Virus record (IMG/VR): IMGVR_UViG_3300048886_001579
Span: 432-64,431 of that record
Length of the DNA: 64,000 nt
Direction: 5' to 3' (one strand)
DNA from: a virus
Taxonomy: Duplodnaviria; Caudoviricetes
Shown here: piece after piece, positions 2,579 to 46,596 of the stretch
Layout: each line of letters opens with the position of its first letter
How positions within the stretch are numbered: the first letter of the stretch is position 1
The notes under the pieces: model-generated
The model's input: only the letters and a program-made list of their open reading frames with translations
Databases searched by the model: none
What the model was told of the DNA's origin: nothing
Program-made: the position numbers and the translations under genes

Positions 2579-3262
2579 TTAATTATACCAGTTAACCTTA
2601 ACTGGACTATGGGTTTTCACACTACTAAAACTAGGAAATCGAAAATCTTCATAATGATGTTCAGTACGATGTTTGCTTTCATCTGGAATTCCAACTCCCA
2701 TCAACAAAAAAACTTTACTGCCCAATATTGTATTGATTTCTTCTTCCATACAACCACAACATCCACTAGCATAACCCAACTGAGTTGATATAAGTTTTAC
2801 ATATCCAGCCGCAATTCCAACAGATGTTAGTACATCTTTAGTCCAACATACATCATCATATTTTGTATCTTCATTGGCACTAAAAGCAAGAAGTAAATGG
2901 GCCAATGTTTGAGGATTCGTTTTAAATTCAATAGAAGGAGTGGGATTCTTCGCTTTATCTCTTTCTTCTCGGTTTTTTCTATCTGATCCTTCCGAAACGG
3001 CTTTAGAATAATCAGAAAGTTTCATAGACGGATCAATTGGAAAACATTCAGTGGCCGAATGAATCTTTTCAATTGTGTCTCTATTAGTGATTACTGAAAC
3101 ATCGAAAAAATTAATATTCTGTCGAGAAGGACAATGAGTAACCGCCTCCATAATCAAATCAACATCTTCTTGAGGCATTTCTTTATCGAGATCCCAATTT
3201 CTTTGACATTTTTGTGATTCATGAATAGCTCTTTTGAGTTGATCTTTGTATGATCCATGCAT
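2579..3262 (-). CDS. Nitroreductase-family flavoprotein
   Basis: SQKCQRNWD...CPSRQN FMN-binding pattern; GYASGCCGC and LLMGVG segments. Confidence 0.75.
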   Translation of the reverse strand: MHGSYKDQLKRAIHESQKCQRNWDLDKEMPQEDVDLIMEAVTHCPSRQNINFFDVSVITNRDTIEKIHSATECFPIDPSMKLSDYSKAVSEGSDRKNREERDKAKNPTPSIEFKTNPQTLAHLLLAFSANEDTKYDDVCWTKDVLTSVGIAAGYVKLISTQLGYASGCCGCMEEEINTILGSKVFLLMGVGIPDESKHRTEHHYEDFRFPSFSSVKTHSPVKVNWYN

Positions 3263-3278
3263 GAGGCTCTTTCTTTTT

Positions 3279-3668
3279 TTAAGTTTTTGCTTCTTGTTTA
3301 TTCTTATAATCTAATATTGCCGCTTTTATAGCATCTTCTGCTAATACTGAACAATGAATTTTGACAGGAGGAAGCGACAATTCTTCTACAAGTTCTGTAT
3401 TTGTAACTGTCTGGGCTTCATCTAACGTTTTATCTTTAATCCACTCAGTAGCAAGACTACTTGTAGCAATAGCACTACCACAACCAAATGTTTTAAATTT
3501 AGTATCAACAATTTTATCATTTTCATCTACTTTTATTTGTATTTTCATTACATCACCACATTCGGGTGCGCCAACCAATCCTGTACCAACGCTTGGATCA
3601 TTTTTATCAAAACTTCCAATATTTTTGGGGTTTTCAAAATGATCTAATACTTTATCTGAATATGCCAT
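3279..3668 (-). CDS. iscU: Fe-S cluster scaffold IscU
   Basis: YSDKVLDHFENPKN, GAPECGDVM, FKTFGCGSAIA, LPPVKIHCSVLAEDA. Confidence 0.97.
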   Translation of the reverse strand: MAYSDKVLDHFENPKNIGSFDKNDPSVGTGLVGAPECGDVMKIQIKVDENDKIVDTKFKTFGCGSAIATSSLATEWIKDKTLDEAQTVTNTELVEELSLPPVKIHCSVLAEDAIKAAILDYKNKQEAKT

Positions 3669-3669
3669 A

Positions 3670-4029
3670 TTATTTTATCCATGAAGGTGTAAACACTTCT
3701 TCTTGTTTAATTGAAAAACTAGTAGAACAACCACATGTTGATTGTGCTTTAGGATTTTGAAATCTTGGTCCTGGTGCGGATAAGTCTGTTGACCAATCTA
3801 TTTCTAAACCATCTACTATCAAATGACTCTTTCTGTCTATTACTATAGGCATACCTCCAGATTCAAAACACAAATCTCTTTTAGATGGTTTACCAAATTC
3901 TAAAATATATTCATAACCAGCACATCCACCGCCCTTAACAGCTACCCTCAAAGGAATTTCTTCAGACAATTCTTCATCTTCACGAATTCTCTTAAAATTT
4001 TTAGCCGCTTTTTCTGTTAAACTGATCAT
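3670..4029 (-). CDS. iscA: A-type Fe-S carrier IscA/ErpA (HesB family)
   Basis: VKGGGCAG and NPKAQSTCGCSTSF motifs. Confidence 0.92.
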   Translation of the reverse strand: MISLTEKAAKNFKRIREDEELSEEIPLRVAVKGGGCAGYEYILEFGKPSKRDLCFESGGMPIVIDRKSHLIVDGLEIDWSTDLSAPGPRFQNPKAQSTCGCSTSFSIKQEEVFTPSWIK

Positions 4030-4080: not shown

Positions 4081-4308
4081 TTACTTCTTTTCTACGAATT
4101 CATACAACTCAGTTGCCTTCTTCTTTATATCCTCAATGGAATATGAATCGGGCTGAAGTTCATTCCAGAGCTTCATATTAGCTTCGCCGTTATCTTTTGC
4201 AAGATCCCAAGCATTGTAAACAAAGTCTTGGTTGCGTTGAGCTTGTTCTTGGAGATAACCCTGTGCCATCTCTAATAGTTTGAATCGTAGTTCGAATGGA
4301 TTAGACAT
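4081..4308 (-). CDS. Conserved T4-like small hypothetical protein (MSNPFELRFKLLEMAQ...)
   Basis: AGGA RBS before ATG 4308; the longer track start (4368) overlaps the tmRNA. Confidence 0.75.
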   Translation of the reverse strand: MSNPFELRFKLLEMAQGYLQEQAQRNQDFVYNAWDLAKDNGEANMKLWNELQPDSYSIEDIKKKATELYEFVEKK

Positions 4309-4387
4309 ATTGTCCTTTCTCTGTGTGTGTTTATGTGTGTAATGGATTGTTTCTGTTCCGAGGCACAATCCCCAAGCCCGTCAGCAA

Positions 4388-4435
4388 TTAAGCGGCTAAT
4401 GCCACCTGTGCTGGATAATAATCGTTATTATTTGC
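4388..4435 (-). other. tmRNA tag reading frame ANNNDYYPAQVALAA*
   Basis: GCA resume codon, AN.. start and ALAA-stop end typical of SsrA tags. Confidence 0.9.
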
Positions 4436-4525
4436 GATTAAATTAAATGACATTTTACATCTGTCAAGATGGTCTCCTCTGCATAATCACATTCAATCGA
4501 ATTCTATTACAGCCCCATCAAAGAA

Positions 4526-4609
4526 TTACATGCTATAATTAAGATAAAACCATGCTATACCCATTCCCAATAATGTCAGAGTAAAAAACCATGTTAATAC
4601 TTTATCCAT
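4526..4609 (-). CDS. 27-aa single-TM peptide MDKVLTWFFTLTLLGMGIAWFYLNYSM inside the tmRNA intervening segment
   Basis: AAGGA RBS directly after the CCA end; ATG..TAA fills 84 of ~102 nt of the spacer; hydrophobic. Confidence 0.6.
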   Translation of the reverse strand: MDKVLTWFFTLTLLGMGIAWFYLNYSM

Positions 4610-4682
4610 ATAATCCTTTGGTGGAGCTGATCGGAATCGCACCGATGTCTTAAATGCTACTCTACAGTATCATCAACTAAAA

Positions 4683-5048
4683 CTATTTAGACAAATCCTG
4701 TGTCACATCTTTAATTTTTTCTATTTGTTTCATAATAATTTGTTCACGTTTTGGCCAATAAATATAGTCTTTTTCTGGATTTTTCATAAGATTGTATAAA
4801 ATAGGTAAAATTAATTCTTCTACTTTACCCATATCTTCTACATATTTTTCTTCTAGATAATCTTTTTTATAACCTATTTCTTTTATAGCAGAATCTATTT
4901 TCTTTTCCAATGCTGAAAAATCTTTTGACTTTGCTTCTACTTGTTCAATCTTTTTTTCTACTTCTGTAGTTTTTGCTTTATATTCTTCATCATCTACTGC
5001 GGAAAAACCGAAGTCAAAATTAGCATATTCTTCAGGTATTTGTGCCAT
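4683..5048 (-). CDS. Conserved T4-like hypothetical protein (..DFGFSAVD...YIYWPKR..)
   Basis: ORF; start trimmed to MAQIPEEY. Confidence 0.7.
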   Translation of the reverse strand: MAQIPEEYANFDFGFSAVDDEEYKAKTTEVEKKIEQVEAKSKDFSALEKKIDSAIKEIGYKKDYLEEKYVEDMGKVEELILPILYNLMKNPEKDYIYWPKREQIIMKQIEKIKDVTQDLSK

Positions 5049-5613
5049 GTTCGTATCCGTATTTGCAAATCCAATAAGAGTCAACTATATCTGAAATGGG
5101 ATTTTTATCACACTTTGTTTGAAATTCTTTTGCAAGTTCTCTCTGTGTGTCAGACACAAAAGAATCATACATTAATTCTTTATTTGCGTTTCCCTTATCG
5201 GATGCGTATTTTTTGATTACTGTGGGAGGTATCATTTCATACCTCAATTTACAGTTGATTAAAGCATATTTTAAAATTGCCATATTTTCCGCAATTTGTA
5301 AAACTCTTTGTCCACTTGCGGAGTAGGCGTAATTTTCAATATAGACTATTTTGGGTCTTTTAGTGAATTGTATAATACATTCTATTACCCAAGAAGATAA
5401 TCCCGTATATCTTTCCATCTCTGTATTATATTTAGGATATTTTGTAATTTCAATATTTTTTAAAGGACCCCATCTATCAAGTTGTCTATCATTTTTTGCT
5501 AAACAATAATGTTTAATATTTTCATATTTCCATTCACCATGACATTCTGTTATTGCTGGACTTGTTAATGAATAATCTATTCCCACATGAAAATCATCTA
5601 TCCCAGTTATCAT
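5032..5613 (-). CDS. RuvC-like (RNase H fold) nuclease / Holliday junction resolvase
   Basis: GIDYSLTSPA, IENYAY, PTVIKKYA..KGNANKE, DIVDSYWI acidic motifs. Confidence 0.7.
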   Translation of the reverse strand: MITGIDDFHVGIDYSLTSPAITECHGEWKYENIKHYCLAKNDRQLDRWGPLKNIEITKYPKYNTEMERYTGLSSWVIECIIQFTKRPKIVYIENYAYSASGQRVLQIAENMAILKYALINCKLRYEMIPPTVIKKYASDKGNANKELMYDSFVSDTQRELAKEFQTKCDKNPISDIVDSYWICKYGYEHGTNT

Positions 5614-5749
5614 CTTCGTCTTCTTCTGATAATTCTATCATTTCTCCACAATAAGAACAAAATTGTACTCGTTCACTTTCATCATCATGAACTATAACTT
5701 CATACATTTTAGAGCAAAATGTACATTCAATTTTTTCAATTATTTCCAT
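5594..5749 (-). CDS. Small zinc-ribbon protein (CTFC...CSYC, acidic tail; 51 aa)
   Basis: Hand-translated; two CxxC pairs; overlaps both neighbours. Confidence 0.75.
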   Translation of the reverse strand: MEIIEKIECTFCSKMYEVIVHDDESERVQFCSYCGEMIELSEEDEDDNWDR

Positions 5750-6002
5750 TTTTGACTAATTCTTCCTCTAATTCTTCTACAGTCAGAAAAACTTTACCAT
5801 CCAAAAAAATTTGAGGAATCTTTTTACTTCCTGTAACGGTCAATATTTTACCAAACAGTCTCTTATCTGCTTGAATGAACATGTATTGTGTTTTGTGTTT
5901 ATCTAATAAAGACTTTGCTTTGTCACACATTGCACATTCACGAAAAGTAAAATGTCCAACAACATAATTTCCTTTATTAAAATCTATTTCATATTTTAAC
6001 AT
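5736..6002 (-). CDS. Glutaredoxin/NrdH-like redoxin
   Basis: CAMC active site, KIPQIFLDG; TAATG-coupled to the RNR stop. Confidence 0.85.
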   Translation of the reverse strand: MLKYEIDFNKGNYVVGHFTFRECAMCDKAKSLLDKHKTQYMFIQADKRLFGKILTVTGSKKIPQIFLDGKVFLTVEELEEELVKNGNN

Positions 6003-7933
6003 TATAAATCCACTACTTCGCATCCACCATCAGCGGCACAGGCCAATTCCTGTGATCCAGAGGTGAAATCTTTTTCTTCATATGAAGACAATAAAGTCCA
6101 ATCAACATTTTTGGGCATTGCTTTTAACGATTTTATATATTCTTCCCGTGTGCAATCTTGATAAGGAGCCTGTCTGTATGTGTGTTCAGAAAAAGGCAGA
6201 AAAGATATACCGCTAATATTATCAAAATTGTTCCATACCCAATTTCCCATTTCAACCCATTCTGGTTCTTTAACGGAAATAGTAACAGATGGTTTGTGTT
6301 CACACCAATGTTCTTGATATGTAGACCAAAGATTTAATTGTTCTATTGCAGTTATATCAGTTCTACATATTGCATTTTTTGGACTCTTCACAGGAAATGA
6401 AAATACCGTTGTGTGTTTGGGTTTCATTACATCTGGTTCATTTGGAAAGTTTGCATCTTTCATAAACTTACAAAGGGGGTCTTTATTATCCGCACGAACC
6501 GTTCTAATATAATATGGATTATGACGAGCATGTATACCACTAGCACTATCAACCAACTGGCTAACTGTGCCAGAAGGTTTAACACAGGTGATAGCCGCCG
6601 ATTGGGATATTCCGAGTTTTTCTGAGAATTCTTTGTTTGTTTTGATTGCAACATTTTTTAACTCATTTAAAAGTTGTTCTAAATTTCCTTTTTTTCCGTT
6701 TGTTAAAGAATTGTCCATTATTCCTGTAAGGGAGACGCCCAAAAGCCGCTCTTCATCACAATTCTTTTTCCACTCTCTTGAGAGATATTTGAAACTGGTG
6801 AGGGTCGATTGAAATGTTCCAAGGATAGTTGCAGTTCGAACTTTTTCTTCCAAAGATTTGGAATCGTCCCATCCTCTGACCACGACTTCTGAAAGGTTGC
6901 AGAATTCTCTGCTTCTAAGTATAATCTCGCTACACGGATTGGTACCAAAATCGTCTTTTGGTTCTCTTCGGATTTCTTCTTCACTATTTAACCTTTCTAC
7001 TTGTTGTTTAGCCGCTAAACTATTATAAATTCCTCGTTCTCCAGATTTTGAATCATAAAGAGACAACCATTCTCTCATAAAAGTACCAACATCTGGTTTT
7101 TCTTTATAATTTACAGAATTATTAGCAAGGGATCTTTGCGGTTGTGTTTCCCACCACTTTCCCGACTTTGCATGTCTCATTGTTTCATCATTAAGATTAG
7201 ATAAACTAATAAGTGCTGATCTACGAACACCCCCTACAACAACTATTTCTGCAATTTTACATACGATATCATGAGCTTCAACAGATTTCAATTTTCTTCC
7301 AGAAGCATCTTGAAATGTATTTATAGTAAATAGAAAAAGGTCTTCTAATGGCTCTGGTCCCGATGCTCTTCCTCCAAAGGTTTTAAGAGGAGATCCCGCA
7401 GGTCTTACATTAGATAAATCCCATTTTGGAATTTGTCCTTGCCAAACTAATGAAAGTAATTCTTTATATGATTTTGCCCACCCCAGTTTTGAATCTGCTA
7501 CAACAATTGTAGTATCCGTTTCATAAAATTCTTCTGCTACTACTGGAAGCTGATTAACATATTCCTCTTCCACAGAAAATCCCACACCTGTTCCATTCAT
7601 TAAAACATATAAAACTTCATCAAATGAACGTGGGTCATCTATTTTAACATAGGAACAATTATAACCTGCTATATTTTCTTTTTTGAGTGCTTCTCCAGCG
7701 GTCATTAAACATCTCATTGATGGCATTACCTCACAATTTGTAATTGCTTCACGTAAATCTGCCTCTAAACCATTATCAAGAATAAAATTGTGTTTAGCCT
7801 CTAAATGTTCTTTAAAAAAATTCAAATATCTATTAACTGTTTCATCCCAGGTTTCCCGTCTTTTAAGACCATAGTCCCATCTTGCGTATCTTGATAAATG
7901 TATAAATGATTGATATTCAGTAGGTAGAGGCAT
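6002..7933 (-). CDS. nrdJ: Class II (adenosylcobalamin-dependent) ribonucleotide reductase
   Basis: YNCSY, GGVRRSA, TNPCSEI.L...FCNLSE, TCVKPSGTVSQL, C-terminal LACAADGGCE. Confidence 0.93.
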   Translation of the reverse strand: MPLPTEYQSFIHLSRYARWDYGLKRRETWDETVNRYLNFFKEHLEAKHNFILDNGLEADLREAITNCEVMPSMRCLMTAGEALKKENIAGYNCSYVKIDDPRSFDEVLYVLMNGTGVGFSVEEEYVNQLPVVAEEFYETDTTIVVADSKLGWAKSYKELLSLVWQGQIPKWDLSNVRPAGSPLKTFGGRASGPEPLEDLFLFTINTFQDASGRKLKSVEAHDIVCKIAEIVVVGGVRRSALISLSNLNDETMRHAKSGKWWETQPQRSLANNSVNYKEKPDVGTFMREWLSLYDSKSGERGIYNSLAAKQQVERLNSEEEIRREPKDDFGTNPCSEIILRSREFCNLSEVVVRGWDDSKSLEEKVRTATILGTFQSTLTSFKYLSREWKKNCDEERLLGVSLTGIMDNSLTNGKKGNLEQLLNELKNVAIKTNKEFSEKLGISQSAAITCVKPSGTVSQLVDSASGIHARHNPYYIRTVRADNKDPLCKFMKDANFPNEPDVMKPKHTTVFSFPVKSPKNAICRTDITAIEQLNLWSTYQEHWCEHKPSVTISVKEPEWVEMGNWVWNNFDNISGISFLPFSEHTYRQAPYQDCTREEYIKSLKAMPKNVDWTLLSSYEEKDFTSGSQELACAADGGCEVVDL

Positions 7934-8769
7934 TATTCAACTCCTTTCAGCTTTTCTAAAAATTCTTTTGATTCTCGTTCAGACAATCCATACTTTGACA
8001 TAACCCAACTACCATTTAAATTGTCTTTTATAATTTTCATTTCTTTCTGTGAAAAAGTTACAGAATTAAACATATAATCTTCGAATGCTTCACAACATAT
8101 AGGAAACTCTGGTTTTACCAATTCATACATTGCTTCTGCAAACTCTCTTGTTTCTTGTTGTGTATGAGAGTCCATTCTCAAATTACAGAACTTAAAAAAG
8201 TTATTCAAATCTATTTTCCAAATACATTCTGTATAATTTGAAACTGGTAGAATTACTCTTGCTAATTCTCTTGCAATTCCTTTAAATCCTTCATAAAACC
8301 CATCTAATTCATTAGGTTCTGAGATTTGCCTATAACATCCTTTTGCGTGTTCATTAACATCATACATTCGTCCAAGGACAAGCTGTTTGTTGTCTTCATT
8401 TATTTCTTTTCCTCGACCTTGATTATTTTGTTCTGATTGTTCGTGTACATCTTTTTCCGCAGGCAAATAAAAATCATCACTCATAATAGAATAACGACCT
8501 GAATATTCATTTATATTAGCAGTTCTGTGTCTAACAATTTGTCTCATCACAAATATTGGTAGCTTTAAATGAAACTTCACTTCACACATCTCAAATGGTG
8601 ATGTGTGATTATGTCTCATTAAATATCGAATTAGGTTTCTTGTCTGTGAAACTTTTCGTGTTCCAGTTCCGTAACTAATTCTTGCGGCATTTTCAACTTC
8701 TTCATCATTACCCATCACTTCTAATAATTTAACAAAACCGTGCTTATGCACTTGTTTTTCACTTATCAT
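7933..8769 (-). CDS. thyX: Flavin-dependent thymidylate synthase
   Basis: AARISY, HTSPFE, RHRTANINEYSGRY, LRMDSHTQQETRE. Confidence 0.95.
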   Translation of the reverse strand: MISEKQVHKHGFVKLLEVMGNDEEVENAARISYGTGTRKVSQTRNLIRYLMRHNHTSPFEMCEVKFHLKLPIFVMRQIVRHRTANINEYSGRYSIMSDDFYLPAEKDVHEQSEQNNQGRGKEINEDNKQLVLGRMYDVNEHAKGCYRQISEPNELDGFYEGFKGIARELARVILPVSNYTECIWKIDLNNFFKFCNLRMDSHTQQETREFAEAMYELVKPEFPICCEAFEDYMFNSVTFSQKEMKIIKDNLNGSWVMSKYGLSERESKEFLEKLKGVE

Positions 8770-16843: not shown

Positions 16844-19800
16844 TTAGTTAACAACAAAACCTTTTTTTTGCCGCTGTTCATTTGATTGAATATATTTTGA
16901 ATAAACATCTACATGTGATTCAAATGTTTTGGGAGGATCAGTAGTATAAATACCTTGACCACCCTTATCTTTCCCTATAGCAGGAGTACCTTCGTCTCCT
17001 ATAACACTATTTTCTTTTTCTGTCAATTCTTTGACACCAAATCCTACCATCATTTCAATAAATTCATCCATACCCATATCTTGATCATCATAAAAAGATT
17101 GAACATCAGTTAAAGTAATAGTTGCTAACGCTCCTTCTTTATTTTCTAATCTCAATTTATCAGGTGTTTCTTCAATTTTATAAAATGAATAATCTTCTAT
17201 ATTTTTAATAGAAGTTCCCATTAAATAATGAATCATGTGTTCAAACACCCTATAAGGATCTCTATCATTGACAATGATATTTCCTTCTTTTACATCTTGA
17301 CCAGGAGTGGCTTCCTTGTAATTGTCAGACAACTTATCAGTTCCCCATTCTCCTGCTCTTTCACTCTCCTTAGGCACTATAGGTTTTTTCCTATTTTCTA
17401 GAACCTTTTCAAGTTTTAGTCTTGTTTTAGTAGCCATATCTCCCTTTTCTTGTGGTATAGAGGATTCATACATACCTTGATTGTCACCAAATTCTTCATA
17501 TTTTTTTCTACTGAATCCCATTTTTTTAGCTAAATCTTCCCAAGCAGAAATTTTATATTCTTTATCGGGACCCGCCGTTTCCTTTGCAATAGCCTTTGCT
17601 TGATTCATCAAATAAAGTTTATTGACCATTGGATTATTAGATATTCTTGTTTTAAAATCTTCTTCCAATTGAACACCTTCAATATACATGTTTAATTCAT
17701 ATGCTTTGTTGTCTAAATTTGCAACTTGAATTTGTACTGTTTTTCTTCCAGCACCTAATGAATAACGATTTGTCTTACCATTTGATGGTTTTCTTGGGCC
17801 AGTTGCAACTTTATCATCTATTTCTTTAGGATCTACAATAGCGCCTTTTGTTTTTGCATGATCAACTGCATGTTGCATTGCATCTGAAAAAGTTTTATGA
17901 TAAAGTGTATAGCCACTTGCAGATTTTTTACCTGGAGCAACTAATTCATCAAGTTCTACTTCTTCAAATTTACGTCCCTTTAAAGCGGCATCTCTTTTTC
18001 TTGACAAAGCCCGCATTGCATCACGATCTTTTCCAGTAAGATACTTCATATGTTTTGTTCGACTATGAAGTTTATCAATTTCTTTATCAATTGCTTTTAA
18101 ATCTTCTGTCATATCGCCTTCATGTTCGACTTCTTCACCATGTCGAGCATAATAAAGTCCAGCTTTATGTAAGGATTTATCAAGAGAAGGAGAAATTCCT
18201 TTATACTGTTTCATCATTCCTGGAAAAGATTTAGCAATCATACCCAAAACAACATCTCGTGGTTCTGTATCAGTATCTATATCTTTAGCAGAAGGCATTT
18301 TTCCTTGAGCGGCCATTTGTGCAATCTTTTCATAATATTGTTTATCAATACTACTTCGATGTTTTTTTGCATAATCACCTAACTCTTGAGAAAAATCACG
18401 TAATTGTCTTTTCATTGCTTCATCAAGCGTATCTTCTCCCACAACATCAGGTGTTTTTCCTTTATAATAAACATTTCCTTTTAAAGCCTTGTGTGCTTTT
18501 TTCACATGTTTTTTATGAACACTAACTTTTCCATCTTTGAAGTTTCCTTTTACTCCTACATCATCTAAAGCCATTTTTACTTGTAACCCAGTACCCTCTT
18601 CCACTTCTGTTTCTTCATGGCGTGGTGGTCTTTTTGGTCCCTTTTGTTTAAAAAGACTTCCAAATTTTTTACCAGGCTTTAATTTTTTAACTTTTCCGCC
18701 ACCAGCTTTAAACTTTTTAATTTCATCTTCATAATCTGATGGAGCTTCATCAACCATAGAATTATCATTATACAAAAAAGGCATTGCTTTTGCATAGGTA
18801 TGTGCGGGTTTAGCCTTCTTTTGTACTCCACTTTCTTTGCTTTTTTTAGTACCAGGTTTAGCAATTCCCAATTTAACTCTTTGATTATGAATATTAAGTG
18901 CCGTTTTTTGTATTGCACTCATTTCATCTACTTCGGAATCTTCTTGTGTCTTAATATATTTGTTAAAAAATTTAGAACTTTGTTTTCGTCTTTTAACATG
19001 ATCTGCCGCGGCTTTTTCATCACCCCTATCTGCTCTACCCGCCATTGCGGCTCTTTTAGTTGCACCCTGCCACGCTCTTCTCATCAATTCTGGAGAAAGT
19101 TCATCTAAGTTTTCTTCTTCTTTTATACCTTTTATAGGAGGTTTAATCCCTTCACCCGCCATTCTTCGTGCAACTTTTCCTCTAAATCCTTTTGCTACAT
19201 GAAGTGCGCCTTGTTTAAAATGATAGTCTACTCCTTGAAATGCTTTGTCCATAAAATTAGCAATTTCTTTTTCGTGACCTTCTTCAAGTTCTACATCTTC
19301 TTTGCTATATCCTTTATGCATTACTCCTGCAATTCGTCTTTCTTTTTTGTTTCCAAAAGCAAATTTCTTGAATTTTTTATTATCCTCTGCTTTTTTACTA
19401 TCCCTATATGTGCTTGCTTCTTCAACTCCCTTATGAAGTTCAACTTTTTCTTTACTTCCTGATAATTTTATAGGCTTTTCAGTTTTTGTTTTTTTCTGTG
19501 CTTTAATTGATTTACCAATAGCTTTTCTTTTTTTCGCTAGATACTTATCAGCTTTATCTTTATCTCCGTCATTATCAATATCTCCGTCTTCTTTTCCAAC
19601 AGGATCTAATTTTGGTTTTTCTTCATCATTACCATTTGCTTTTGCTTCACCATTACTGTCTGGTTTATCTGCTTTAGCTTCACCTTCTTTTGCCTTTGTT
19701 TTGGCATCTTTTTCTCGTTTCTTTTTGTCATCAGGATTATCGCTTTTAGCATAGTGATGATGATGTACATCGCCTTGCTCTTTTATTTTCATAAATTCTT

Positions 19801-19882
19801 TATATATTGCATCATCTTCAGGTTCTGTAAAAGGTCCTGGTACTAAAGTTTTCCAATCTTCATGAAGCGTTTTGAATTCCAT
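16844..19882 (-). CDS. Large modular K/E-rich protein, probable internal head polyprotein
   Basis: Recurrent EEVELDE / EENLDE / EVDE linkers separating basic modules. Confidence 0.65.
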   Translation of the reverse strand: MEFKTLHEDWKTLVPGPFTEPEDDAIYKEFMKIKEQGDVHHHHYAKSDNPDDKKKREKDAKTKAKEGEAKADKPDSNGEAKANGNDEEKPKLDPVGKEDGDIDNDGDKDKADKYLAKKRKAIGKSIKAQKKTKTEKPIKLSGSKEKVELHKGVEEASTYRDSKKAEDNKKFKKFAFGNKKERRIAGVMHKGYSKEDVELEEGHEKEIANFMDKAFQGVDYHFKQGALHVAKGFRGKVARRMAGEGIKPPIKGIKEEENLDELSPELMRRAWQGATKRAAMAGRADRGDEKAAADHVKRRKQSSKFFNKYIKTQEDSEVDEMSAIQKTALNIHNQRVKLGIAKPGTKKSKESGVQKKAKPAHTYAKAMPFLYNDNSMVDEAPSDYEDEIKKFKAGGGKVKKLKPGKKFGSLFKQKGPKRPPRHEETEVEEGTGLQVKMALDDVGVKGNFKDGKVSVHKKHVKKAHKALKGNVYYKGKTPDVVGEDTLDEAMKRQLRDFSQELGDYAKKHRSSIDKQYYEKIAQMAAQGKMPSAKDIDTDTEPRDVVLGMIAKSFPGMMKQYKGISPSLDKSLHKAGLYYARHGEEVEHEGDMTEDLKAIDKEIDKLHSRTKHMKYLTGKDRDAMRALSRKRDAALKGRKFEEVELDELVAPGKKSASGYTLYHKTFSDAMQHAVDHAKTKGAIVDPKEIDDKVATGPRKPSNGKTNRYSLGAGRKTVQIQVANLDNKAYELNMYIEGVQLEEDFKTRISNNPMVNKLYLMNQAKAIAKETAGPDKEYKISAWEDLAKKMGFSRKKYEEFGDNQGMYESSIPQEKGDMATKTRLKLEKVLENRKKPIVPKESERAGEWGTDKLSDNYKEATPGQDVKEGNIIVNDRDPYRVFEHMIHYLMGTSIKNIEDYSFYKIEETPDKLRLENKEGALATITLTDVQSFYDDQDMGMDEFIEMMVGFGVKELTEKENSVIGDEGTPAIGKDKGGQGIYTTDPPKTFESHVDVYSKYIQSNEQRQKKGFVVN

Positions 19883-19884
19883 AC

Positions 19885-22179
19885 TTACCCCTTATCCTGA
19901 TTTGATTTTTGCTTTTTATCAAAAATGGCATTGTAAAATTTAGTTCTTTGATCTGTTCTTTTAAGAACTTCTTTACCAGCAGAAAGATCGCCTCTAGCTC
20001 TTTTAGTTTGAGCAGACATTGCTTTTTCTCCCGCTTTCGTATAGGCTCTTACTTTCATATCTTTAGAAATTTCATCTATTTCCTGTTCTTCTTTACGTTG
20101 AAGATATTTTCTTTCTATTGGTGATGCTATTCTGGTCTGAACTTGCTTTTTATCTTTTTGATCTCTAAAAGCTCTTTTTGCTTTCATTTTTTCTGAAGCA
20201 ACAGATCCCTTTTTTACATATTTTCCTTGAGGAGTGTCTACAACTACATCTCCTTCACTAAAGGCTAACCATTTTTTGAATGCGTGATTTGTATCCATTT
20301 CTTCCTTTGTTCTATGCTTAGAGTCAACTTGAGTCCATAAATCTTGATCTGTGATTAATCTAGTTTTACCGCCAGTCAAAAATGAATTAACTCTCGACTC
20401 TGCCCATTGTTGGGGAGTAGTTCCTGGTCTATGACTTGCGTTCCATGCACTAATTCCTCGAGTGTATACTTTTTGTAAAATTTTAACTGGAATACCAGAC
20501 TGTTCTGCTTTTAATTTTAAATTGTCAACAGATTCATCATATCCTGGATGACTGGCTTTCGCCATTTCTTTTTTCTTTTTTTCTTGCCTATTAGCCCACA
20601 TTTTATGAATTTGTTTTCTAGACGGAAATTTCTTTCGATCTATTTCCTCTTTTTTCGTCTGTTGTTTATAAGCCTTTACTGATTTTGCAACCCAACCACT
20701 TTTCTTGTCGGCAGGATGTAATAAAGCACCCGCTTTCTGAGCAGAATCATAAGATTTATGCTTAATTTCTTCTTCTACTGATTCTTCAGGTAATCCGTGT
20801 TTATTATGTTGCGCCCAAGCAAATGCATATGCTTTTTCTGTACCCACTTTTTTCTTTAAAGCCTTTACTTGTTTTTCTCTTCCTGGAGGAGCATCCTCTT
20901 CCAATCCCCTTTTCTTCATCTCTTTATCAATACGTTTAATCATAAATTGAAAAGAAGGCATATCAGTTTTTCCACTAGTACGTAGTTGCTTCATCTTTGC
21001 TTTAAGATGATCATCAGGTTGTTTTTCTATTTTTGCTTCGTCTACTTCAAATTCTTCTTTTGCTTTTACCATTCCTTTAACAAATTTTACAGCTTGAGCC
21101 CTTCGTTTCCGTCTAATATTAGGATCTCTCTTACCAAAACCTGTGCCCGAGCGGTCAGGTGAAGTTGGTTGGGCAGGTTCTCTTCCTTGTACTTCTGCTT
21201 TCCTTGCGGCTTTATAAAGCAATTCTTTAGTCATTTCATCTACCTCAACTTCTTCTTTGGGAAACATCCAATCTGGAGTTCTATCTATTATTTTTGCACC
21301 CATTGATTTTTCTCTTTTCGCTTGTGTATCCTTTACTTTTTTCATTATTTTAGCTAAGTGTGCTTTCTTTGCCGCAGGAGTTGCAGGATATTCTGCACCT
21401 TCTTTAATTTTATGTGCAGGCACCTTTTCTGATCTTGCAAGTCCTGGAATAGAAACAACATAAAAGGGAGAATGAGGACCTTGATCATCATAACGAACTA
21501 CTTTTCCTGTGACCATTCCCTTACCTTTTGCTGGATGAGCAACTTTTACTTTTGTTCCGGGTCTAAGTGCCGATTCTTTTATAGTGTCAATTTTCATTGC
21601 TTTCCTAATTTCGTTATACATAGATTTTGTATCTTTAGCAGATAATTTCGTTCCTTTTTTAAAATTATCTAAATCTCCAGAAACTGCAAATTCCCTTAGT
21701 TTCGATGCAGACACTCCAGCAACACCCTCAGCATCAGGATCACGATCTCCTGAACTTACAAAATCGATATCTATAAAATCATAAAATCCGTGTTTTTTCT
21801 TTTTTCCATTATATTCCGATATCCATTTTGAAAATTTAGCTAATCTATCACTCCCAACTACGAATACAAGTCTTTTAAATCCATCAGAATATAAATCAGA
21901 TAATGATACAAAAACTGTAGGTTTAATATCTATATTGATATTTTGACCTATCGTTTTTTCAACATAAACAACTTTTCTATCTGGACCCAAAGGATCCTTT
22001 TTAGCATTCTGAGTAGGAGACAAAAAAATGAAAGGCTCTGCTTTATGTTTTCTCGCCTCTGCTTCAATCTTTTTCGCAAGTTTAACATGACCTATTGAAG
22101 GAGGATTCATTCTCCCGAAAGTCACAACTGCTGTCTTTTCTTGCTTTGTTTCTGCTAAAAAATTTTTATAAATCTTCAT
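19885..22179 (-). CDS. HIGH-superfamily nucleotidyltransferase (cytidylyltransferase-like) fused to a modular K/E-rich extension
   Basis: TFGRMNPPSIGH, VVGSDR, GVSASKLR; later GTTPQQWAESRVNSFL module; N-terminus MKIYKNFLAE. Confidence 0.8.
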   Translation of the reverse strand: MKIYKNFLAETKQEKTAVVTFGRMNPPSIGHVKLAKKIEAEARKHKAEPFIFLSPTQNAKKDPLGPDRKVVYVEKTIGQNINIDIKPTVFVSLSDLYSDGFKRLVFVVGSDRLAKFSKWISEYNGKKKKHGFYDFIDIDFVSSGDRDPDAEGVAGVSASKLREFAVSGDLDNFKKGTKLSAKDTKSMYNEIRKAMKIDTIKESALRPGTKVKVAHPAKGKGMVTGKVVRYDDQGPHSPFYVVSIPGLARSEKVPAHKIKEGAEYPATPAAKKAHLAKIMKKVKDTQAKREKSMGAKIIDRTPDWMFPKEEVEVDEMTKELLYKAARKAEVQGREPAQPTSPDRSGTGFGKRDPNIRRKRRAQAVKFVKGMVKAKEEFEVDEAKIEKQPDDHLKAKMKQLRTSGKTDMPSFQFMIKRIDKEMKKRGLEEDAPPGREKQVKALKKKVGTEKAYAFAWAQHNKHGLPEESVEEEIKHKSYDSAQKAGALLHPADKKSGWVAKSVKAYKQQTKKEEIDRKKFPSRKQIHKMWANRQEKKKKEMAKASHPGYDESVDNLKLKAEQSGIPVKILQKVYTRGISAWNASHRPGTTPQQWAESRVNSFLTGGKTRLITDQDLWTQVDSKHRTKEEMDTNHAFKKWLAFSEGDVVVDTPQGKYVKKGSVASEKMKAKRAFRDQKDKKQVQTRIASPIERKYLQRKEEQEIDEISKDMKVRAYTKAGEKAMSAQTKRARGDLSAGKEVLKRTDQRTKFYNAIFDKKQKSNQDKG

Positions 22180-44709: not shown

Positions 44710-46421
44710 TGTACTATTCTGCTAAAATTTTTAACTTTTTGAAATTTAATCATGTGTTGAAATTTATCATAAAGTATTTCCCCCTTATGACTTATCACAA
44801 ACACATTTGATGCATTACCAAGAGAGTGTATTATTTTAAGAAAATCACTTGTTCCATCTTCATCAAGTGAACTATCAAACACCTCATCTAATATGAGTAA
44901 ATTCGTACTCATACTATTTTTTAATTTAGCAATTGCTCTCCATGTAAAAAGCAAAGCCAAATCAATACGCATTTTTTCCCCTTCACTAAAAGAAGCATAA
45001 GTAAATTCATCACGAAATCTAGATTTAATCGTTTCATTAAAATTTTCATCAAGATTAAATGAAACATAAAAATCCATCTTTGACAAATATTTGTTAATTA
45101 ATTTATTCATAATAGGAAGATATTTTTTAACAATTAATGTTTTAATACCCCCATCTTTCAACAAAACACTTGCAGTATCATATATAGATTGTAAATTACT
45201 ATGTTGCTCTTTTAATGATGTAAAAGTTTTTAAATCTGATTTTAATTTTTTCAATTTCACAGAAGCATCTGAAACATCTGCATCATTTTCGTTTAATTGT
45301 TGTATTTCTACATTTATCTTTTCAATATATTGATTAATAGCAAATATTGAAGCATTGTGTTTTGTTACGACACCTTGAATTTCTGTAATTTTTTCTTGAG
45401 TAGTCTGCATTTCAGAAATAACGAAAAGAGATTCCTTAATATCTGCTCCTATTTTATTAATTCCATCACTTAACTCTGTTTTTTTCTCTTCTTTTGAATG
45501 GATCTCACAAGTTCTATGTTCGTCATCAATTGTCTGTTTACATGTTGGACAATCTGTATTTTCATTATAAAATTCAATTTCTTTTTCAAGTTTCTTTACA
45601 TTTTTTTCAATTTCATCTTGATATTGTTCTAATTTTTGGTGTTTCTTTTGTGCTTTATCAAAATCATTAACAAGCTCTTGAAGAGTTGATACTTCTTTAT
45701 CACAATTTGCAATATGAGAATTATATTCTTCTATTTGATTATGAGACTCTTTAATTTTTTTTTGATTACCAGCAATTAATTGTTTATTGCTTTTTTTCAT
45801 TTTTGAAATAAAATCTTCTTGCAATTCTAATGCATTTTCAGTTTTTGAAAAATTCAATTCATTTTGATATTGTTCTTCTTTCAAATTAGAAACTTTACTT
45901 TTCAATAAAAAATTCATTGTAGAAAATATTTGAATATCGAGCAAATCTTCAATAATAATTCTACGATCATTTGATTTAAGTTGCATAAAAGGAACGAAAG
46001 ACGAACTACCAAGAACAACAATTTGAGTAAAAGATTTATAATTTAATTTAAGAATATTTTTTTCAAGATGTTCTTGATAATCTCTTACTTTTGCATCTTG
46101 ATTTATTAATGTTCCATCAACTTCAATTTCAAATAGATTTGGTTTTATTCCTCTACGAACAAGATAGTGTCTATTACCAATTGAAAATTCTGTTTCAATA
46201 AGACAATTTCTATCATTAATTGAATTGATAATTTGAGACTTATTAATATTACGAAATGCTTTTCCGAATAGACTAAAGGTAAGAGCATCTAATATTGTAG
46301 ATTTACCAGACCCATTTTCTCCAACAATCAAAGTTGTTGGATTTTTGTCTAAATCAATTTCAATAAAATTTTGACCAGTGGAAAGAACATTTTTCCATCT
46401 GATCTTATGAAAATTTATCAT
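44706..46421 (-). CDS. 46: SMC/Rad50-like recombination endonuclease subunit (gp46)
   Basis: GENGSGKST, CPTC zinc hook, FSEGE, LILDE. Confidence 0.96.
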   Translation of the reverse strand: MINFHKIRWKNVLSTGQNFIEIDLDKNPTTLIVGENGSGKSTILDALTFSLFGKAFRNINKSQIINSINDRNCLIETEFSIGNRHYLVRRGIKPNLFEIEVDGTLINQDAKVRDYQEHLEKNILKLNYKSFTQIVVLGSSSFVPFMQLKSNDRRIIIEDLLDIQIFSTMNFLLKSKVSNLKEEQYQNELNFSKTENALELQEDFISKMKKSNKQLIAGNQKKIKESHNQIEEYNSHIANCDKEVSTLQELVNDFDKAQKKHQKLEQYQDEIEKNVKKLEKEIEFYNENTDCPTCKQTIDDEHRTCEIHSKEEKKTELSDGINKIGADIKESLFVISEMQTTQEKITEIQGVVTKHNASIFAINQYIEKINVEIQQLNENDADVSDASVKLKKLKSDLKTFTSLKEQHSNLQSIYDTASVLLKDGGIKTLIVKKYLPIMNKLINKYLSKMDFYVSFNLDENFNETIKSRFRDEFTYASFSEGEKMRIDLALLFTWRAIAKLKNSMSTNLLILDEVFDSSLDEDGTSDFLKIIHSLGNASNVFVISHKGEILYDKFQHMIKFQKVKNFSRIVQ

Positions 46422-46596
46422 AATTTGATTTCAATATTTCTATTATTTCTTTTTGGCAAGCCAGAATCTTAGCGTATGCTATGTCTCTGTTGTTTTGATA
46501 TTTGTGTCTATATGTTTTAATATATTCTTCTTCTAAGACAGATAATTCATCAAGTTTAGTCTTCAGTAAGAAATTGAGGCGCTGATCCATCTTCAA
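46405..46596 (-). CDS. Small hypothetical protein
   Basis: ORF overlapping neighbours. Confidence 0.55.
   Translation of the reverse strand: MKMDQRLNFLLKTKLDELSVLEEEYIKTYRHKYQNNRDIAYAKILACQKEIIEILKSNYDKFS

Follow-up and report, generated by a model that had tools for sequence, protein, structure and literature searches.

A circularly permuted tmRNA gene of an uncultured T4-like marine phage and the small open reading frame in its intervening segment

We analysed a stretch of viral DNA of 64,000 nucleotides (nt), hereafter the window, which makes up most of the 64,431-base-pair (bp) IMG/VR record IMGVR_UViG_3300048886_001579 (CheckV completeness ~33%). ARAGORN called a single gene in the window, a circularly permuted transfer-messenger RNA (tmRNA, gene ssrA) at 4711..4297(-), whose tag, ANNNDYYPAQVALAA, is the one that had been read in an initial annotation made from the sequence alone. 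The Rfam family RF04321 (tmRNA_permuted) matched 4677..4388(-) over its full model (1-213) with 90.2 bits (E = 4.8e-16), against a gathering score of 47 bits, and was the sole Rfam family over threshold in the 64 kb. Other Rfam matches at the locus (snoR53Y, CRISPR-DR14 and others) were below cut-off and were dismissed. The initial annotation had proposed a phage-encoded, two-piece tmRNA that could be checked with ARAGORN or with permuted-tmRNA covariance models, and both methods call the gene. It had placed the RNA at 4340-4672 and left the strand unstated; as plus-strand numbers these limits are nearly right, but the RNA lies on the minus strand and more likely runs from ~4680 to ~4344. The ends of the precursor were set by the limits of conservation and pairing in an alignment of relatives and by the stop codon of the upstream open reading frame (ORF). 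The features of the locus and of its neighbourhood are collected in Table 1.

Table 1. Features of the permuted tmRNA gene and of neighbouring genes, in window coordinates (aa, amino acids).
Feature	Position	Strand	Basis or remarks
Permuted tmRNA (ssrA) precursor: acceptor piece, intervening segment, coding piece	~4344..4680	-	ARAGORN, RF04321
Acceptor piece	4619..4680	-	sequence reading
Helix 2, 3' strands	4667..4665 and 4657..4650	-	
T-arm AUCGG / UGCGAUU / CCGAU	4646..4630	-	5 bp and 7-nt loop
Acceptor 3' strand CAGCUCC	4629..4623	-	
Discriminator A	4622	-	
Encoded CCA	4621..4619	-	
Intervening segment, 102 nt	4517..4618	-	stem-closed, head AAGGAUUA... with tail ...UAAUUCUU
Spacer ORF (P0001), 27 codons and stop	4526..4609	-	hydrophobic, single-helix-like; ATG 9 nt past CCA, AAGGA 4 nt upstream
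Coding piece	4344..4516	-	
Acceptor 5' strand GGGGCUG	4516..4510	-	pairs with CAGCUCC, gives G3-U
Helix 2, 5' strands	4496..4489 and 4481..4479	-	pair across pieces with 4657..4650 and 4667..4665
Pseudoknot PK1	4448..4471	-	stem 1 4471..4467/4462..4458; stem 2 4466..4463/4451..4448
Tag frame	4388..4435	-	resume codon GCA 4435..4433; 15 residues ending ALAA; UAA 4390..4388
3' pseudoknot	4344..4380	-	helix A 4380..4377/4362..4359; helix B 4371..4365/4350..4344; conserved loop GGAACAGAA
Upstream ORF, 133 aa as listed	4683..5084	-	stop 4685..4683, 3-5 nt before tmRNA
Downstream ORF, 75 aa	4081..4308	-	CA-rich leader and GAAAGGA ahead; not gp33-like
Nitroreductase-family gene	2579-3262	-	
NifU-like gene	3279-3668	-	
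IscA-like Fe-S biosynthesis gene	3670-4029	-	
Glutaredoxin	5736-6023	-	
Ribonucleotide reductase, 643 aa	6002-7933	-	nearest phage matches annotated adenosylcobalamin-dependent (class II)
ThyX	7933-8769	-	

The tRNA-like 3' half of the molecule precedes its 5' half. The T-arm (AUCGG/CCGAU) and CAGCUCC-A-CCA are read at 4646..4619(-), ahead of GGGGCUG at 4516..4510(-), which is the order that had been described. Pairing of GGGGCUG with CAGCUCC supplies the G3-U determinant for alanine, and helix 2 joins the two pieces through eleven pairs in two segments. Both stems of pseudoknot PK1 can be drawn from the sequence and stem 1 corresponds to a hairpin in the consensus of RF04321; the relatives align here in a different register.

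Relatives were gathered by pattern scans of IMG/VR and ARAGORN was run on every fetched locus, which gave 159 permuted tmRNAs. At least 43 loci besides the window carry tags of the form ANN(N/S/D/A)DY..., mostly ending in ALAA (the ANNxDY family), and since so many loci carry one tag family the gene is evidently maintained by selection. Twenty distinct members were aligned with MAFFT and folded with RNAalifold, yielding 46 consensus pairs, of which 18 show compensatory changes. The compensatory pairs are located in the T-arm (3 of 5 pairs), both segments of helix 2 (7 of 11 pairs changed on both sides), the stem that closes the spacer (alignment columns 66/168, 70/164 and 71/163) and helix A of the 3' pseudoknot. 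All pairs of the acceptor stem, the U-G at position 3 among them, are invariant in the 20 sequences. Both the alanine determinant and the pairing of helix 2 across the pieces, as claimed in the initial annotation, are therefore upheld by the family. Helix B was assessed by a direct complementarity scan, the MAFFT columns being register-shifted; the family holds 18 distinct sequence versions of it, 17 of which retain at least 6 bp. The AACAGAA loop is present in 44/44 family members, as well as in alphaproteobacterial tmRNAs and pelagimyophage copies. The alanine resume codon and the ALAA-ending tag frame are likewise conserved across the family. Taken together, these patterns point to a gene under selection for RNA structure.

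They also bear on whether the gene could be a dead relic, that is, a fragment of a host ssrA left by imprecise prophage excision, or the remnant of an attachment site, without function in the phage. Host ssrA is a frequent site of prophage integration, and a generic pattern search for the tRNA-like domain in viral contigs returned a mixed set, of which many matches are probably such prophage/ssrA junctions. However, the gene in the window is complete and scores well over the RF04321 cut-off, and compensatory changes across dozens of viral contigs contradict decay. Moreover, it is situated within a one-strand block of T4-like replication genes, with no integrase among the 22 annotated ORFs, and none of the sampled cellular genomes carries a tag of the ANNxDY family, mis-binned phage contigs aside. 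We regard a relic as very improbable.

To judge from its sequence, the gene carries all of the features required for alanylation and tagging, and we are confident, if short of certain, that it encodes a functional two-piece tmRNA. The locus would be best explained as a working ssrA gene, in circularly permuted form, of a lytic T4-like marine myophage. By analogy with the two-piece tmRNA of Caulobacter, ~4680..4344 would be transcribed as a single precursor, which host RNase P would cleave 5' of G4516 and host 3'-end enzymes would trim back as far as the CCA encoded at 4619. Pairing in the acceptor stem and in helix 2 would then hold the two pieces together, host alanyl-tRNA synthetase would charge the RNA via the G3-U pair, and host SmpB and EF-Tu would deliver it to stalled ribosomes. 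Translation would resume at GCA (4435), and the 15-residue, ALAA-ending tag would mark the product for proteolysis; as predicted from the tag, this end fits recognition of the ClpXP type. The initial annotation reported no smpB in the window, and none was found across the entire 64.4-kb contig either. Because the contig lacks this gene, SmpB would have to come from the host and the phage would supply the RNA only. The likely benefit to the phage would be sustained recycling of ribosomes during infection, while host transcription is off and mRNAs are cut.

Three points detract from this account of the RNA. The T-loop, UGCGAUU, has a G at the position where tRNAs and most tmRNAs carry the U converted to pseudouridine 55; the variant is recurrent, being found in at least 117 viral stretches and many Saccharibacteria. 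A scan for promoters and terminators around the gene gave matches at chance level, none of them clear. Lastly, expression, processing, charging and tagging are all predicted from the sequence of an uncultured phage.

The same RNA might instead redirect or block host trans-translation, for instance through competition with the host's own tmRNA for SmpB, or through a tag that leads to a different fate. A precedent exists in the tmRNA-like RNA of mycobacteriophage DS6A, which inhibits the endogenous tmRNA (PMC11915505), and selective tagging of host proteins by phage has been put forward as an idea in the paper describing phage Melnitz (PMC9004378). As the phage carries no smpB its RNA must compete for that of the host, and the tag is unlike all 31 of the alphaproteobacterial tags sampled (the alphaproteobacterial sample comprised 151 genomes, one of them, G049, unpublished and counted in the tally only, its sequence not being used). 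Unlike the DS6A form, however, the ANNxDY family keeps a full tag frame, a canonical alanine resume codon and the ALAA end. The gene in the window also has the G3-U pair and the predicted PK1, and these features suit ordinary tagging followed by proteolysis. We consider interference with the host system unlikely and prefer conventional trans-translation.

The intervening segment between the two pieces contains an ORF at 4609..4526(-) that the initial annotation did not mention. Spacers in the family fall into size classes of 17-33, 96-107, 137-147 and 189-205 nt. In all spacers of 96-107 nt, an open frame of 27-32 codons starts with ATG; it fills 81-95% of the spacer, is preceded by an AGGA-like motif and in most cases begins 9-11 nt past the CCA (4 nt in two variants that are extended by two codons). 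The encoded peptides are hydrophobic and belong to at least four mutually unalignable types. In most of the 189-205-nt spacers this position is occupied by an ORF for a basic protein of 55-59 aa, and the 17-33-nt spacers contain no ORF of either kind. When the sequences were shuffled with dinucleotides preserved, a frame of this kind was reached in 0.4-4.5% of trials per sequence (p 0.004-0.045), and combining six unrelated peptide types by Fisher's method gave p = 1.6e-6. For the best-sampled peptide type, the ratio of non-synonymous to synonymous polymorphism (pN/pS) was 0.69 in frame vs 1.09 and 1.20 out of frame, a modest signal, as expected of a transmembrane-like peptide. Spacer proteins of 56 and 57 aa belong to clusters of hypothetical proteins from metagenomes with 43 and 46 members, respectively. 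Peptides of 27-30 aa are not recorded in protein collections, because they lie below gene-caller length. No spacer-filling ORFs were found in the sampled cellular alphaproteobacterial spacers, which are mostly shorter than 60 nt.

A rival view accepts the tmRNA but denies that the spacer ORF is a gene. The segment would then be a structured, disposable linker which extends the acceptor helix to assist processing, the frame and its hydrophobicity being by-products of composition and of the closing stem. A number of observations favour such a linker at the expense of a translated ORF. The acceptor stem and spacer fold into one long hairpin (z -3.36), and in the window copy the Shine-Dalgarno-like AAGGA motif, the AUG and the stop region are all paired within the predicted closing stem; translation would need this stem to be opened. 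Because AAGGA and the AUG both lie in paired positions of this stem, the motif, or the purine-rich head as a whole, may owe its conservation to RNA processing, not to a role as a ribosome-binding site; short-spacer relatives also retain a purine-rich spacer head. On its own, the ORF in the window reaches a shuffle p of only 0.036. Its closest variant, in locus L350, differs by one synonymous and two non-synonymous changes, which is uninformative, and the in-frame pN/pS bias of the best-sampled type is modest. Furthermore, the spacer peptides matched no PHROG or Pfam family.

What the linker does not account for is the behaviour of the family as a whole. Six peptide types that cannot be aligned with one another keep a spacer-filling ATG frame 9-11 nt past the CCA, which is the pattern behind the combined shuffle result. 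Longer spacers carry proportionally longer ORFs whereas short ones carry none, pN/pS exceeds 1 out of frame, and sampled cellular spacers of comparable length are without such ORFs. Moreover, a stem alone would not require ~80 extra nt; relatives work with 17-33 nt. A mere linker is possible and has to be taken seriously, but we find it somewhat doubtful, and we judge translation of the ORF at 4609..4526 to be fairly probable. The intervening segment probably carries a small gene, and is not merely waste, with a 27-residue hydrophobic peptide as its product, made either from the precursor or from the excised fragment.

The spacers are also exchanged. Backbones that are 92-98% identical hold an empty 26-nt spacer, a 103-nt spacer with a peptide ORF or a 198-nt spacer with a basic-protein ORF. 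Between the window RNA and that of locus L138 the two pieces are 100% and 94% identical and the spacer 62%, whilst in the comparison with L350 the spacer is 95% identical and the coding piece 71%. Syntenic close relatives of the window phage carry at least four different spacer peptides. In these comparisons the spacer moves independently of the RNA backbone, and across the ANNxDY family the stem-closed segment acts like a slot in which small genes can be exchanged. Spacer-filling ORFs, here of 22-62 codons, were also observed in viral permuted tmRNAs outside the family (L103, L059, L211, L215, L229, L141 and L088), most of them starting 9-13 nt past the CCA; since these long spacers too contain ORFs, use of the slot is not confined to one tmRNA family.

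With some hesitation, we lean towards a joint reading of these data, in which the excised segment is a dedicated, stem-closed expression slot for exchangeable small protein genes. One abundant transcript would serve both as the precursor of a stable RNA and as a messenger, tRNA-processing enzymes would release a mini-mRNA, and the cargo in the window would be a 27-residue membrane peptide. On the same reading, the ANNxDY tmRNAs may form a lineage of permuted tmRNA that is restricted to phages and separate from the three classical lineages of cells. A spacer regarded as disposable, within a stable-RNA gene, would thereby hold small, swappable protein genes. If the spacer ORFs are translated, they represent a new mode of gene packing in dense phage genomes and a natural case of tRNA-processing enzymes liberating an mRNA. 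We found no description of protein genes within tmRNA intervening sequences in the full-text-searchable literature. A class of putative small membrane peptides of phages goes unannotated because the spacer ORFs of 27-32 codons are missed by gene callers.

By its gene content, the contig is a fragment of an uncultured, T4-like marine myophage. This assignment is based on the IMG/VR record and on genes for DNA polymerase, major head protein, scaffold, primase and helicase. Every gene examined is on the minus strand. The replication set consists of a family B DNA polymerase, a DnaB-like helicase, a primase and an SbcC-like nuclease, and the head genes encode a scaffold protein and a major head protein of the T4 type. 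The latter is 63% identical to its counterpart in the Pelagibacter phage HTVC008M, 62% to that of the Methylophilales phage Melnitz and 61% to that of the Pelagibacter phage Mosig, vs 58-60% for cyanomyophages. ARAGORN found no tRNA genes in the window. Elsewhere in the window, 16844-22179(-) holds a pair of exceptionally long ORFs (1012 and 764 aa), the second of which has an N-terminal cytidylyltransferase domain (phrog_3041, phrog_395), and an adjoining ORF of 410 aa matches phrog_455.

The tmRNA gene is immediately flanked by two small ORFs that are unrelated to the genes flanking ssrA in Melnitz-type phages. The upstream ORF had no significant Pfam or PHROG match. The downstream 75-aa ORF adjoins the tmRNA in most contigs of the ANNxDY family; it was without match in PHROG and Pfam searches, and its sole match among GenBank phages was a hypothetical protein of Roseobacter phage CRP-9 (31% identity). 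Between the end of the tmRNA and the GAAAGGA and ATG that precede and start the 75-aa ORF lies a CA-rich tract, ACACACAUAAACACACACAGAG, at 4312-4343(-), which most contigs of the family retain. It could act as a translation leader or belong to the coding piece as its 3' tail. On the other side, CTAAATAG at 4690..4683(-) overlaps the stop of the upstream ORF and is similar to TATAAATA, the late promoter of T4. Where the upstream gene is a different one, members of the family show ATAAATA or TATAAATA at a comparable distance from the tmRNA start, and CTAAATAG is a possible late promoter for ssrA, as a candidate drawn from sequence similarity. Further out, auxiliary genes for redox and iron-sulfur functions flank the tmRNA (2579-4029 and 5736-8769, -), with glutaredoxin, a class II ribonucleotide reductase and ThyX beyond the upstream ORF, and IscA-like, NifU-like and nitroreductase-family genes beyond the downstream one. 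Melnitz has a class I enzyme, nrdA/nrdB (PMC9004378), and the combination of a class II reductase with iron-sulfur helper genes looks unusual in the group of phages to which Melnitz and HTVC008M belong.

The initial annotation had taken the permuted form, established for Alphaproteobacteria, some Betaproteobacteria and marine picocyanobacteria, as a clue to the host. This argument was weakened by comparison with the lineage-specific models, all of which the window RNA and short-spacer members of the ANNxDY family fall short of. For RF01849 (alpha_tmRNA, cut-off 50) the window scored 31.9 bits and short-spacer relatives 42.5-47.4; for RF01850 (beta_tmRNA, cut-off 84) the scores were 43.1-45.2 for the window and 44-57.1 for relatives; and for RF01851 (cyano_tmRNA, cut-off 70) they were 31.7, from the tRNA-like part only, and 35.1-60.1. 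Comparing the tag and T-loop with those of candidate hosts, as had been proposed, was no more informative. A permuted tmRNA over the cut-off is present in 146/151 of the sampled alphaproteobacterial genomes, yet none of the 31 tags resembles that of the window. The UGCGAUU T-loop was rejected as a clue, since its matches in cellular genomes are mostly one-piece tmRNAs of Saccharibacteria, with scattered Alphaproteobacteria too. Two metagenome-assembled genomes (MAGs) with contigs that carry the ANNxDY tmRNA family were considered as hosts and rejected. The contig PAAV01000031.1 of the Chloroflexota MAG NAT137 (L308) is syntenic with the window phage and was read as mis-binned. The Flavobacteriales MAG SZUA-1004 (locus L278, genome G007) contains three separate permuted tmRNAs over the cut-off. 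Both contigs are very likely mis-binned phage, and such contigs could mislead taxonomic surveys of tmRNAs. In addition, Melnitz has an alpha-type ssrA and a host that is not alphaproteobacterial (PMC9004378), which means that hosts cannot be predicted from the type of ssrA. As a clue to the host the permuted form thus counts for little: the RNA in the window cannot be typed to a lineage, its T-loop recurs in Saccharibacteria and scattered Alphaproteobacteria, its tag is unlike the 31 tags sampled and Melnitz provides a mismatch. Typing of ssrA is unsafe for host inference.

Phage-encoded permuted tmRNAs are an already published kind, and the novelty implied in the initial annotation was overstated. 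Buchholz et al. described a two-piece ssrA in phage Melnitz in 2022, counted 53 two-piece tmRNAs in 18,146 phage genomes (aquatic phages accounted for 50) and reported permuted tmRNAs in 17/47 Melnitz-like contigs (PMC9004378). Melnitz, Mosig and HTVC008M are also the nearest cultured relatives of the window phage, and each has a permuted tmRNA over the RF04321 cut-off. The copy in the window mainly adds one member to this set. What is new in it is its membership of an untyped, apparently phage-only family, its different locus, the absence of a riboswitch and the probable small, exchangeable gene in its spacer. The family itself is large, uncultured and apparently phage-only, and it is missed by all of the lineage-specific models. 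Neither the tag string ANNNDY nor ANNSDY is present in the supplements of the Melnitz paper, and a blastn search with the whole tmRNA gene against GenBank phages found no phage with the RNA, the one match being a spurious 42 nt. A tmRNA database paper from 2025 lists only 79 phage tmRNAs (PMC11915505), from which we conclude that the diversity of phage tmRNAs is under-sampled.

Like the copy in the window, those of Melnitz, Mosig and HTVC008M have a stem-closed spacer and the AACAGAA loop in the 3' pseudoknot. Unlike it, they pass RF01849 (106.7, 67.6 and 83.8 bits; cut-off 50, window 31.9), and their tags, ANDNYVPVDYALAA, GEDNFALAA and ANFNEYALAA, differ from that of the window. Their ssrA lies downstream of a PD-(D/E)XK nuclease gene and a small ORF and directly upstream of a gene for a gp33-like late-transcription coactivator, an arrangement that is not kept in the window; synteny of the locus with the three phages was rejected, the flanking ORFs being dissimilar to the Melnitz genes. 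Melnitz also has a glutamine riboswitch just 3' of its tmRNA (RF01739, 52.8 bits), whereas RF01739 had no match at the window locus even with E-values up to 10. The spacers of Mosig and HTVC008M are compact, bare hairpins, unlike those of Melnitz and the window. In the 142-nt spacer of the Melnitz ssrA locus (locus at MZ577097.1, ~45984-46436; L005:1461-1940) we observed GGAG followed after 7 nt by an ATG, with a frame that stays open into the coding piece and for which no coding sequence is annotated in GenBank.

The alphaproteobacterial tmRNA of the Caulobacter type (RF01849), a two-piece form reported by Keiler, Shapiro and Williams in 2000 (as cited in PMC9004378), shares with the copy in the window the order of acceptor piece, spacer and coding piece, the G3-U pair, helix 2 across the pieces and, as predicted for the window, PK1. 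It also shares an AN...ALAA-style tag and, in the copies of Hyphobacterium and Sulfitobacter, the AACAGAA-loop 3' pseudoknot. Because this pseudoknot is common to alphaproteobacterial and pelagimyophage tmRNAs, an alpha-like ancestry of the window tmRNA is plausible on sequence grounds, with the RF01849 score remaining below that family's cut-off. As for the spacer, inserts known from the intervening sequences of permuted genes are a tRNA-Ala gene and a repetitive element, and standard tmRNA genes can have group I introns in the T-loop (PMC11915505). As in the window, the intervening sequence in those cases tolerates large insertions that leave the mature RNA unharmed. The inserts reported there, however, comprise an RNA gene, a repeat and self-splicing introns, whereas that in the window is a small ORF with a motif resembling a ribosome-binding site, which is exchanged among phages.

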